Assembly (NCBI GenBank): GCA_046482545.1
Contig: JAWOEX010000021.1
Span: 103,041-167,040 of the forward strand
Length of the DNA stretch: 64,000 nt
Direction of reading: 5' to 3'
Source: Candidatus Thorarchaeota archaeon
GTDB lineage: Archaea > Asgardarchaeota > Thorarchaeia > Thorarchaeales > Thorarchaeaceae
This document shows, one piece after another, positions 42,430-64,000 of this stretch (positions are counted from its first letter, which is position 1; each line of letters starts with the position of its first letter). A program made the translations under genes and the position numbers. The notes below the pieces were generated by a model, which was not told where the DNA came from, ran no database searches, and was given only the letters and a program-made list of their open reading frames with translations.

Positions 42430-42517
42430 TGGTGCGGAGGGCGAGATTTGAACTCGCGAACTCCTACGAGACTAGAGTCTGAGTCTAGCACCTTTGGCCT
42501 GGCTTGGTAACCTCCGC
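42430..42517 (-). tRNA. tRNA-Leu (anticodon CAG)
   Basis: The reverse complement folds as a cloverleaf. Acceptor GCGGAGG/CCTCCGC. Anticodon stem CTAGA/TCTAG with loop CTCAGAC. Long variable arm. T-arm GCGAG-TTCAAAT-CTCGC. 3' ACCA. Confidence 0.8.
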
Positions 42518-51279: not shown

Positions 51280-51382
51280 ATGGGGCCGAGAGCGGGAATT
51301 GAACCCGCGGCTAGGGAGCCACAATCCCCAAGGTTGCCAGAGGGCCTGCCCAATGTCATCAGGCAGTCTACCCCATCTCGGC
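51280..51382 (-). tRNA. tRNA-His (GUG) with about 25-nt intron in the D-loop
   Basis: The reverse complement is GGCCGAGA...GGGGATTGTGGCTCCCT...GCGGGTTCAATTCCCGC-TCTCGGC-C-CCA. Encoded G-1 plus discriminator C73. Anticodon loop TTGTGGC. A 35-nt stretch lies between D-stem halves GGGT/ACCT, with an internal hairpin CTGCC-N11-GGCAG. Confidence 0.55.
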
Positions 51383-51454
51383 CATTACTGTTTCTGAAAA
51401 ATCTGGGATGGCTTATTATCTTATTCCTTCTTGGCAGATATAACCATTCTAATC

Positions 51455-52235
51455 CAATTTAATGATCATACCATCGTGAGCAAGTTCGATATCCATGTCA
51501 GAAAACTGTTTCATTTTCTCACGCCCAGCTTCAACATCGTCAAGAAGCCACTTGCCTAAATGGGTGAATATGATGTGGTCAGTATAGGGTTTGAAGAAGG
51601 CTATAAAATCGAGGTTGCCTTTGTGACCTAAACTGCTTTGTTATCCGCAAACACTCTCCCCCTCGCTCGAATGAAACTTCCGTCGGCAATCACTAGATCC
51701 AAATCACCGAACTTATCGTGGTGCTTTTTTCAATCCAAACCATGTCCCCAGTGTACAAAAGACGATTGTCTCTTTCCAACAGATAGGCTGTAGATTCAAC
51801 TGCTTTACTGTGGATAGTCGGTATGGCTGTTACTGTATAGGAGCCGATACTTACTTCACCGGAAATAACCTGAATCTCGATGTCTTCGGACTGTTCAGGC
51901 GCACACACAGGAACATCAATGGAATCTACTTTTTAGGTTACGAAGAATGCATGGTCCGGGTGAAGATGAGTGATGAATACAACATCTGGATTACGTTCCA
52001 AGAATTCAAATTCGCCAACATCCAGAAGAATGCATCTATCAACCAGCACTCCAGAATATTTCGAATGACGGGGGGTTAGGGCTGTATTTGCCCGGGTCCC
52101 TAGAAACTCAATTTTGGTCATTTTGTTACAGGAACTAGTTTTCCTGGTAAGTGAAGGGTCTTTCGGGAGGCCCAAACATTCCCTAGAAGGTTTGTTCGCG
52201 AAACTTGACCGTAAATAAAAAGCGGTGGTAACCAT
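51455..52235 (-). pseudogene. MBL-fold metallo-hydrolase, fragmented by frameshifts/stops
   Basis: Three collinear minus-strand pieces: an N-terminal piece with VVFITHLHPDHAF, a middle piece LYTGDMVWIEKS, and a C-terminal piece HGHKGNLDFIAFFKPYTDHIIFTHL in different frames. Confidence 0.45.
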
Positions 52236-52329
52236 TGCTTTCTTTTTGAATAGCGGCTAGTCCGTATTCCACAAGCATTATACCTACTCACCCCTTCGCA
52301 AAAGTGTGGTCTTCTACGGAGAAAAGAAA

Positions 52330-61752: not shown

Positions 61753-62594
61753 TAGCGCTGCCTAGAATACGGTTCGGTCCTGCAGGCTATCCAAATGATG
61801 CCAACGGGAAACTCGATGAGGTTTTCCGAATCCTCTCAGAAGGAAATCTGAGCGCGCTCGAATATGCAGCTACCTATGGGCTGAGAATCGGTGAAAAGAA
61901 GGCTCAGAAGCTCGCCAGCTTGGCCAATCAGCATGACATAGCAATGAGCATGCACGGAGCATACTACATCAATCTCGCATCGAAGAAAGAGAAGACGCGG
62001 AAACGATCAAAAGCCCGACTCGTGAAGGCTCTACGATTTGCACCCCTTATGGGCGTAAAACGAATAGTCTTTCATCCAGGAACCTACGGTGGACTAGCAC
62101 CCGAAGAAGCTTTTCTCGTCATTCGTGATGCGATGAGAGAAGCAATAGAAGAAGCAGGACAAGAATCTGGAGATGCTGTACTAGCGCCAGAGGTTGCCGG
62201 GAAGAAGAACATGTTTGGTTCTCCGGGGCAAATCATAAGACTTTGTCAAGAAGTGAGTACCACGATTCCATGCATTGACTGGGCCCACCTATACGCCCGA
62301 ACCGGTGGTAACATAGGAGACAAAGACAGCTATTCCCAAGTACTGGATATTTTTGAAGATGCTCTTGGGAATACTTTCACCGACAATATGCATTTTCATG
62401 TCAGTAGTATTATCTTCAACCAAAATGGGGAAAAAGCACATAGACCGCTTGGTGCTGAGTGGGGTCCAGACATATTACCATTGATAGAGCTAGTGCTGGA
62501 GAACGGTTACAAGCCGACTTTCATATCGGAGACGCCCACCCCAATCAGGGGAGCGTTATATACAAAGATACTTTGCGATAAACTGAGTGAGTAA
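61716..62594 (+). CDS. nfo: Endonuclease IV (xylose-isomerase-like TIM barrel)
   Basis: MSMHGAYYINLAS, VFHPG, LAPEVAGKKN and IDWAHLYA resemble Endo IV metal-ligand blocks. Confidence 0.6.
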   Translation: MVLCLGIHLGRVIALPRIRFGPAGYPNDANGKLDEVFRILSEGNLSALEYAATYGLRIGEKKAQKLASLANQHDIAMSMHGAYYINLASKKEKTRKRSKARLVKALRFAPLMGVKRIVFHPGTYGGLAPEEAFLVIRDAMREAIEEAGQESGDAVLAPEVAGKKNMFGSPGQIIRLCQEVSTTIPCIDWAHLYARTGGNIGDKDSYSQVLDIFEDALGNTFTDNMHFHVSSIIFNQNGEKAHRPLGAEWGPDILPLIELVLENGYKPTFISETPTPIRGALYTKILCDKLSE

Positions 62595-63942
62595 AAAAAT
62601 GACTGAATACGCCTTTGTCCTCGGTAAGAATTGGACGCTTTCAATTGCAGAGCTTTTGGAATATCTGACTGACAGGGGAATCGATTATGACATTGTAGAC
62701 TATTCACGAACCTCCATCGTACTCGACCTTCACAGATATTTTGAACCCCGTGATCTTGGTGATATTCAGGAGGCCTTGGGTGGATGCTACAAAATCGGAA
62801 AAGTAGTATCCAGATTCAACAAGGATTTAGCAGTCAGGGCGTTCCCGGCAAAGGGGAATATTCACAGAGATGCAAGAGGAAGGCTGCGTGAATGTCCGTG
62901 GGTCGATAGAATATGGGACAGGGTTAGGGGCAAGAAAATCAAGTTTGGTTTCAGCACATATCCATTGGTGAACTATGAAAGTAAAATAGACCTGAAGAAG
63001 CTCACGCTAGGTCTCGATGAATGGACCAAAAGAAAGTTGACTGAGAGTGGAGCGAGAAGGGCGATCTATTACGCATACGATGAATCTAATCCCGATGACC
63101 CAGATGCACCTAATATGGCATTATGGCCTCAGACTGTTGCTGAACAGGAACTATACAAACCACCGAATTCAGAGATACTCGTTCTTCTTACGACGAACAG
63201 AATGTACATTGCGAATACGATTGTGCTCTACGACTCGATGCTTCAGAAGTACCGCGATGAATCTCGCCCGTATGTTGCAGCCGAAATTAGCACGAGTCCA
63301 AAAATCTGTAGGACTTTGCTGAATCTTGCAGGAGCTCGCAGGGGAGATACCGTACTCGATCCGTTTTGTGGAACCGGTACACTGCTCATGGAGGCGGCCC
63401 TGCTAGGAATGCATGTTATAGGAATTGACTTGGATGGGAACACAGCACAAGGGGCACGATCGAATCTTCAATGGCTTGAGAGAGACTTGGATGAAAAGAT
63501 TGAGTATAGGATAATCAGGGGGGACGCCCGAAAAGCCGATAGATTGATTCAAGAGACGATTGATGCAGTAGCTTTTGAACCAGAGCTCGGACCAGTTTTC
63601 GATAACCCACCACAACCAAAGAAAGCAAAATCCATCATCAGTGACCTCACCAAGCTCTATACACAGACACTCAATGCAGTAGCAATGAGACTGAGACCTA
63701 GTGGGCGCGTTGGAATGACATTGCCAGTTATCAATGCCGTAGGCAACCAAGTGAACGTGGATGTCTATAAGATGACAGAAGGAACACCTTTTAGCGTTAA
63801 GAAAATGCTGAGACGAAGCCAGCTTGGCAGCCAAGAGAAAATCGACGAGCGTGTTAAGCTGTATCCGAACAGAGAGACACTGCCAGAGCGTAAAAGGGGG
63901 CAGGTAGTTCAGCGCGATGTGTTGATGCTCAGCAAAGACTAG
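62587..63942 (+). CDS. THUMP-domain RNA methyltransferase (Trm-G10/Trm11-like m2G MTase)
   Basis: SAM motif LDPFCGTGTLLMEAALLGMHVIGIDLD with an N-terminal THUMP-like region. Confidence 0.5.
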   Translation: MSKKMTEYAFVLGKNWTLSIAELLEYLTDRGIDYDIVDYSRTSIVLDLHRYFEPRDLGDIQEALGGCYKIGKVVSRFNKDLAVRAFPAKGNIHRDARGRLRECPWVDRIWDRVRGKKIKFGFSTYPLVNYESKIDLKKLTLGLDEWTKRKLTESGARRAIYYAYDESNPDDPDAPNMALWPQTVAEQELYKPPNSEILVLLTTNRMYIANTIVLYDSMLQKYRDESRPYVAAEISTSPKICRTLLNLAGARRGDTVLDPFCGTGTLLMEAALLGMHVIGIDLDGNTAQGARSNLQWLERDLDEKIEYRIIRGDARKADRLIQETIDAVAFEPELGPVFDNPPQPKKAKSIISDLTKLYTQTLNAVAMRLRPSGRVGMTLPVINAVGNQVNVDVYKMTEGTPFSVKKMLRRSQLGSQEKIDERVKLYPNRETLPERKRGQVVQRDVLMLSKD

Positions 63943-64000
63943 AAAAGGTATCTGATGACATCGTCAACTATGGCGTAAGTCTCCAGCCGGTCCAAATCTC

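Follow-up and report, generated by a model that had tools for sequence, protein, structure and literature searches.

The window analysed here, a 64-kb stretch of Ca. Thorarchaeota DNA, carries on its minus strand, at 51383..51281, a sequence that reads as tRNA-His(GUG), in which G-1, C73 and CCA are encoded and the D-loop is interrupted. The Rfam tRNA model (RF00005) matches it with 42.4 bits (E=1.2e-5 for the window), well over the gathering score of 29. This match spans model positions 1-71 of 71, with 33 nt of the D-loop being handled as an insertion, and the outcome is alike for the orthologues at L015-17 and L019-21 (loci are cited by number). The tRNA-His match at 51383..51281 lies far above chance level. 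The isotype His(gtg) is assigned by ARAGORN to both the unspliced form and the form spliced in silico. G-1 opposite C73 is an identity element for HisRS, and both G-1 and C73 are also encoded in every intron-less Asgard orthologue retrieved. Judged by these features, 51383..51281 is a tRNA-His(GUG) gene of Ca. Thorarchaeota, whose expression and charging with histidine are predicted. It is probably the only tRNA-His of the organism.

From the 5' end, the gene comprises G-1 (51383), the first strand of the acceptor stem (GCCGAGA, 51382-51376), U8 and G9 between this strand and the D-stem, and the D-stem halves GGGU (51373-51370) and ACCU (51334-51331), all on the minus strand. These are followed by a single U and the anticodon arm GGGGA-UUGUGGC-UCCCU, whose 7-nt loop (51324-51318, with the anticodon GUG at 51322-51320) is uninterrupted, by the variable loop AGCC and by a T-arm GCGGG/CCCGC with the loop UUCAAUU. 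The second acceptor strand (UCUCGGC, 51291-51285) pairs with the first in 7 of 7 Watson-Crick pairs, and the discriminator C73 (51284) and the encoded CCA (51283-51281) complete the gene. The features on which the earlier note had based its reading of a minus-strand tRNA-His(GUG), namely G-1 opposite C73, the anticodon loop UUGUGGC and a perfect acceptor stem and T-arm, are thus all present, and its count of 35 nt between the D-stem halves is exact (51369-51335). The range that it gave, 51280-51382, omits G-1 and includes one base past the CCA, the gene itself being 51281-51383.

Besides the tRNA-His, the window contains only one other tRNA gene, tRNA-Leu(CAG) at 42430-42517 (minus strand), which is uninterrupted and has a long variable arm. 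It scores 49.7 bits with Rfam, and ARAGORN concurs. A permissive Rfam scan of the window found no further disrupted tRNAs. The 3' CCA is gene-encoded here, as it is in all of the Asgard tRNA-His loci retrieved; in archaea, CCA ends are stated to be added mostly after transcription (PMC5143459). Elsewhere in the window, a C/D-box snoRNA model (SNORD48) matches 63907-63968 on the minus strand with a score of 23.1 bits (E=0.37), below the threshold of 36. The match lies antisense to the 3' end of the open reading frame 62587..63942 and has no clear C box on reading, and it is probably due to chance.

The organization of the D-arm was examined by folding the 103-nt precursor. In the minimum-energy fold, the 5' strand of the D-stem, G10-U13 (51370..51373), pairs not with ACCU but with the GCCC at the 3' end of the insert (51342..51345; GCCU in L019), forming a 4-bp central helix, here called helix H. 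On one side, this helix is followed by the 3-nt bulge A14-G15-A (51367..51369) and then by a 9-bp hairpin with a 3-nt loop (51346..51366), built from CUGCCUGAU (51366-51358), GAC (51357-51355) and AUUGGGCAG (51354-51346). In the Boltzmann ensemble, helix H has a probability of about 0.73, the normal D-stem one of 0 in the precursor, and the pairs of the hairpin range from 0.74 to 1.0. The bulge A14-G15-A is unpaired with a probability of at least 0.93 and is invariant across alleles. On the 3' side of helix H, the adjoining U-C and U16 (51339..51341) show unpaired probabilities of 0.29, 0.86 and 0.90; the middle base is C or A among alleles, whereas U16 is invariant. The earlier note had proposed a hairpin CUGCC-N11-GGCAG compatible with a bulge-helix-bulge (BHB) intron. 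These elements do occur (CUGCC at 51366-51362, 11 nt, GGCAG at 51350-51346) and the compatibility stands, but the hairpin is longer than described, with its 9 bp and 3-nt loop, and it is the outer helix h within the intron, the central helix being GGGU/GCCC. Taking CUGC/GCAG as the central helix was considered and rejected; it would leave an 18-nt D-loop and would place variable columns inside an exon.

The splice motif is best modelled as a relaxed BHB of the hBH or bulge-helix-loop type rather than as a strict hBHBh', because the 3' site has no closing outer helix. A strict hBHBh', the substrate of alpha4 and alpha'2 EndA, would have a second 3-nt bulge on the opposite strand, with 2 bp or more of outer helix h' closing it, and none was found here. 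G18, G19, C20 and A21 cannot pair in register with G9 and U8, and G18 and G19 pair elsewhere in the ensemble. The best 3' helix that can be drawn, G9-C20 and U8-A21, has 2 bp and is preceded by a bulge of 5 nt. The minimum-energy fold of some alleles extends helix H by G9-U and U8-A pairs, so that a second bulge would blur. No intron is present at position 37/38, the insert lying at 15/16 with the anticodon loop intact. A self-splicing group I or II intron, whose ribozyme core takes up hundreds of nucleotides, was ruled out by the size of the insert, only 28 nt, and by the lack of any Rfam intron match, the matches at this locus being to tRNA only, even at E up to 1.

By the standard rule for a BHB, cleavage within each bulge falls after the second of its three bases. 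Applied to this fold, the rule places the cuts after G15 (51368/51367) and before U16 (51340/51339), and it thereby predicts a 28-nt intron on the minus strand, ACUGCCUGAUGACAUUGGGCAGGCCCUC (51340..51367), between tRNA positions 15 and 16, and a mature D-loop AGUGGCA. The earlier note had put the intron at about 25 nt, 3 nt too short. By alignment to the Rfam model, the 5' exon (51368..51383) consists of G-1, G1-A7, U8, G9, G10-U13, A14 and G15, and the 3' exon (51281..51339) runs from U16 (51339) to the CCA (51281); both are invariant in five alleles. The position of the junction was also approached by scoring deletions of 0-44 nt, starting at precursor positions 9-30, with a profile of six intron-less Asgard tRNA-His. 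For the window allele, the deletion 51367..51340 was the best of 666 products, with 54.4 bits versus 43.1 bits unspliced. The product spliced in silico was folded by ARAGORN into a canonical 74-nt tRNA-His(gtg). Its predicted D-loop, AGUGGCA, matches the 7-nt D-loops of the intron-less Asgard tRNA-His obtained from reference genomes and metagenomes, which read AAUGGCA, AAUGGUA and AGUGGUA.

It is rather improbable that the gene and its type of intron are as described but splicing takes place 1 nt upstream, at 14/15, with G15 removed and a mature D-loop A-N-UGGCA. This junction scores better in two to four alleles, L018 and L019 being those named (55.7 versus 54.4 bits), and the gain of 1.3 bits in these two arises from restoring AAUGGCA, the D-loop that most Thorarchaeota have. 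For the window allele, however, it would give ACUGGCA and a lower score (52.7 versus 54.4 bits). Only the junction at 15/16 yields an identical mature tRNA from all alleles; with 14/15, the mature tRNA would differ among alleles at one position, whereas the 75 other exon positions are invariant. The upstream junction also disagrees with where the rule puts the cut when the bulge A-G/A adjoins a helix of 4 bp. In addition, the G15-C48 pair is a standard tertiary pair of tRNAs, and retaining G15 provides it with the C48 of the variable loop.

Comparison with syntenic loci in four other lineages, recovered using both flanking genes as anchors, revealed how the insert varies. Five distinct alleles were distinguished (the window with L015-17; L018; L019-21; L033/34; L035), all of which share the order mfnA, tRNA-His and aminotransferase gene. 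The flanking proteins of the four other lineages are 75-97% identical to those of the window, and a Ca. Thorarchaeota metagenome-assembled genome (GCA_051748335.1, contig JBNJHH010000005.1) encodes a protein with 100% identity to the aminotransferase next to the gene. The intron has 28 nt in the window, L018, L033/34 and L035, and 29 nt in L019-21. Variable columns account for 16 of 29 in the intron versus 0 of 75 in the exons (Fisher p=2.6e-11, five alleles). Across the five alleles, helix H is paired in 100% of cells, with one change from G-C to G-U, and the nine pairs of the hairpin hold in 95.6% of cells, both partners having changed in two of these pairs and one partner in three. The slid-partner control gives a clear result; 98.7% of cells are paired with the proposed partners versus 39-57% when the partners are slid. 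Shuffle controls on the five alleles are weak; as many both-side changes as observed arise in 96 of 500 shuffles, and the covariation score is attained in 23 of 500. With five sequences, these shuffle controls are no more than suggestive. The pattern suggests that the intron helices are kept by wobble and compensatory changes while the sequence varies.

The surroundings of the gene differ among these alleles. Between 51170 and 51440, the window and L018 (GCA_053582745.1) share about 97% nucleotide identity from the mfnA side to the 5' exon, and identity falls to about 78% from the intron through the aminotransferase gene; the two introns differ from each other at about 11 of their 28 positions, and no alignment is possible in the 3' flank. 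The pattern resembles a breakpoint of homologous recombination at or inside the tRNA gene, with the window and L018 apparently being mosaics there. In the sister group, at L019-L021 and L033-L035, a 226-aa gene of the Lactamase_B family lies between mfnA and the tRNA-His gene; in the window (51384-52305) and in L018, the spacer between mfnA and the tRNA-His gene has only short unannotated ORFs. By this comparison, the spacer beside the tRNA-His gene appears as a variable region.

Within the spacer, a putative promoter was noted on the minus strand at 51410..51437, approximately 27-54 nt upstream of G-1. The sequence, CTGCCAAGAAGGAATAAGATAATAAGCC, is A/T-rich and TATA/BRE-like, and the five alleles with the intron share it without a difference. 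The core of the box, GGA(A)TAAG(A/C)TAATAAGCC, is found again ahead of intron-less tRNA-His genes of Thorarchaeota, Promethearchaeota and Hermodarchaeota (L001-L010, L023, L025, L027 and L031). The distance from the box to G-1 is roughly 40-55 nt in the intron-less lineages versus about 26 nt here. It is probable from this conservation that the box is a promoter. No similar box is evident upstream of the tRNA-Leu of the window, and the putative promoter is perhaps specific to the tRNA-His gene. The stretch between the box and the gene (51384..51409, minus strand) is presumed from its position to hold the transcription start and a short 5' leader that would be removed by RNase P.

Taken as a whole, the locus very probably encodes a functional Ca. 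Thorarchaeota tRNA-His(GUG) whose D-loop is interrupted at 15/16 by a 28-nt archaeal intron of the protein-spliced kind. The fold, the invariant exons versus the variable intron and the canonical cloverleaf of the spliced product support the proposal of the earlier note that the insert in the D-loop is a non-canonical BHB-type intron. We infer that this tRNA-His is transcribed, cleaved by EndA and ligated. In the precursor, the D-stem 5' strand G10-U13 would pair with the GCCC at the 3' end of the intron, giving the 4-bp central helix of the BHB. One side of this helix would carry the 3-nt bulge A14-G15/A and the stable 9-bp hairpin, while the 3' splice site on the other side, U-C/U16, would be single-stranded with no closing helix, as in a relaxed hBH or bulge-helix-loop motif. 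Both sites may then be cut by an EndA of the Asgard (alpha-beta)2 type, which has the L1 (Crenarchaea-specific) loop and tolerates relaxed motifs, and the exons may be joined by an RtcB-type ligase. After ligation, the D-stem GGGU/ACCU would form, closing the 7-nt D-loop AGUGGCA.

Two other readings dispense with splicing. That the insert is retained, giving a mature tRNA with an enlarged D-arm and an extra hairpin, is very improbable, even if the hairpin is stable and structurally conserved as a structural extension would be. The D-stem has a probability of 0 in the precursor because its 5' strand is occupied by the intron, and G18 and G19 are displaced, so that the core of D-loop and T-loop could not form as drawn. 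Moreover, the 4-bp helix, 3-nt bulge and hairpin make up exactly the geometry of an EndA substrate, and the 16 variable positions of 29 suggest little constraint beyond pairing. The orthologues function with a 7-nt D-loop, and we know of no tRNA with a D-loop of 35 nt. More improbable still is a pseudogene disabled by the insertion, with a working tRNA-His elsewhere in the genome. The 64 kb surveyed leave room for a second copy, and one published intron-rich tRNA-His of Asgard archaea was flagged as 'possible pseudo' (PMC11291895 Supplementary Data 4). Against this, exons and promoter-like box show 100% conservation across lineages in which the proteins encoded nearby share only about 75% identity, whereas a pseudogene would decay. 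The gene also occupies the site of the single intron-less tRNA-His of related Thorarchaeota, and the splice-competent structure of the insert appears to be kept through compensatory changes.

These intron-less relatives also bear on where the intron occurs. When 185,579 reference genomes were scanned with the anticodon arm and the T-arm, the matches lay mostly in Thorarchaeota, Promethearchaeota, Hermodarchaeota and Heimdallarchaeota. At L003, L007 and L009, an intron-less tRNA-His lies beside mfnA in the same divergent orientation, with MfnA 55-57% identical to that of the window; the tRNA-His at these loci and at L031 have the 7-nt D-loops AAUGGCA or AGUGGUA. In the protein database, identity to the MfnA of the window drops from 76% to 59% with no intermediates. 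The intron is present where the neighbouring MfnA is at least 76% identical, and the syntenic tRNA-His lacks it in every sampled lineage with MfnA at or below 59%, so that it marks one Thorarchaeota sub-lineage. Nor was it found in the other sampled Asgard tRNA-His, those of Hermodarchaeota, Promethearchaeota and Heimdallarchaeota. Among homologues of the aminotransferase at 61-66% identity, synteny with the tRNA is lost, and only L031 has a tRNA-His nearby, which is intron-less. At the closest MfnA outgroups, the upstream region is cut off or no tRNA adjoins, and no allele with window-type exons and no intron was found there. A metagenome scan for the exons separated by a gap of 0-30 nt gave no matches, a broader one returned only intron-less genes of the Thorarchaeota type, and a scan of viral contigs for tRNA-His found none.

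Since every sampled outgroup lacks the intron, one gain, at the root of this sub-lineage, would be the most parsimonious history. No second copy of the intron that would point to transposition from another tRNA was found in the 64-kb window.

Published work has placed introns of this kind in Asgard archaea and described enzymes able to remove them; endonucleases able to cut relaxed motifs are the (alpha-beta)2 type with the L1 loop and the epsilon2 type. [quoted passage not shown] 2018, PMC5829648). In Atabeyarchaeia and Freyarchaeia, introns were reported in 92-95% of tRNA genes, many of them non-canonical (Valentin-Alvarado et al. 2024, PMC11291895), and some of these intron-containing tRNAs escaped tRNAscan-SE (PMC11291895). 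For instance, the tRNA-His(GTG) of Atabeyarchaeia-2 has a single 39-nt intron in the D-arm from the 14th base, and introns after base 15 occur in the Gly-CCC, Pro-GGG, Ile2-CAT and Lys-CTT tRNAs of Freyarchaeia and in Trp-CCA of Atabeyarchaeia-2 (PMC11291895 Supplementary Data 4). With introns in the D-arm and after base 15 thus tabulated, both the class of the intron and its insertion site are already known in Asgard archaea. This agrees with the earlier note, which had taken non-canonical intron positions to be typical of TACK/Asgard-type archaea, since the host is a Ca. Thorarchaeota and D-arm and 15/16 introns are on record for Asgard tRNAs (PMC11291895).

The case described here shares with Atabeyarchaeia and Freyarchaeia the Asgard affiliation and the short introns at non-canonical positions (PMC11291895). 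Nevertheless, Thorarchaeota are a different class, and tRNA-His is intron-less in most of the Thorarchaeota lineages sampled. The window has two tRNA genes, only one of which bears an intron, versus 92-95% in Atabeyarchaeia and Freyarchaeia genomes. Relative to the tRNA-His of Atabeyarchaeia-2, compared by tabulated positions, the intron has 28 rather than 39 nt and lies at 15/16 rather than at about 13/14.

Biochemical evidence comes from more distant archaea. [quoted passage not shown] 2011, PMC3241643). As in the tRNA-His, the intron interrupts the D-loop of an otherwise ordinary tRNA (PMC3241643), and cleavage by the (alpha-beta)2 EndA depends on the Crenarchaea-specific (L1) loop. By analogy, the splicing of A. 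pernix pre-tRNA-Thr may be considered the best biochemical model for the mechanism proposed for the tRNA-His. It differs in being crenarchaeal, of another isotype and excised from a canonical BHB, whereas here the 3' side lacks an outer helix; the A. pernix intron is also experimentally confirmed, while that of the Thorarchaeota tRNA-His is predicted. A relaxed BHB intron in the D-loop likewise occurs in the pre-tRNA-Glu(UUC) of Methanopyrus kandleri, whose mature form was seen in RNA-seq and whose efficient cleavage requires an EndA that has the L1 loop (PMC5829648). That intron lies at 20b/21, on the 3' side of the D-loop, versus 15/16 here. The opposite side of its motif is disrupted (HBh', compared with the hBH-like motif here), and the M. 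kandleri precursor has an additional canonical intron at 37/38, which the tRNA-His lacks. In Thermoproteales, lineage-specific short non-canonical BHB introns and a broad-specificity EndA are likewise described (Sugahara 2008 and Fujishima 2010, as cited in PMC4090602 and PMC4033280). Multi-intron tRNAs and intron transposition are reported there as well, whereas here a single intron occurs in a single gene.

The intron affects how the gene is annotated, and detection of the tRNA-His gene depends on the intron allele. By default, ARAGORN calls a His(gtg) at 51281-51360, a truncated artefact that begins inside the intron. Because its intron mode permits introns only in the anticodon loop, this mode returns a spurious tRNA-Gly(ccc) of 95 nt, to which it assigns a 7-nt 'intron'. 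On the L018 and L019-21 alleles, no tRNA was reported by ARAGORN, and Rfam at its gathering threshold gave none in L018, though the gene there is intact by eye. The expectation of the earlier note that finders without models of non-canonical introns can miss such genes was thus borne out by ARAGORN, which truncates the gene, mis-calls it as tRNA-Gly and misses the L018-L021 alleles. tRNAscan-SE 2.0 does model such introns, its BHB training set being drawn from Crenarchaeota, Euryarchaeota and Thaumarchaeota (PMC8450103).

A more speculative idea, to which only a small chance is given, is that position 15/16 may be a preferred landing site of tRNA introns in Asgard archaea and that this locus captures one datable gain. 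If so, it would offer a before-and-after pair for how protein-spliced introns insert, for instance by reversed EndA and ligase reactions where a D-stem strand pairs with the incoming intron. It could also be asked whether an intron adjoining G15 determines which comes first, archaeosine modification or splicing.

The intron of the tRNA-His leaves the known splicing mechanism unchanged. It neatly exemplifies an intron restricted to one lineage, is useful for annotation and is unsurprising to a specialist. Because a widely used finder truncates or misses the gene, genomes of this lineage could appear to be without a tRNA-His. The locus also allows intron-bearing and intron-less alleles to be compared at one syntenic site, and it adds a Thorarchaeota data point to the intron-rich tRNAs of the archaeal relatives of eukaryotes.
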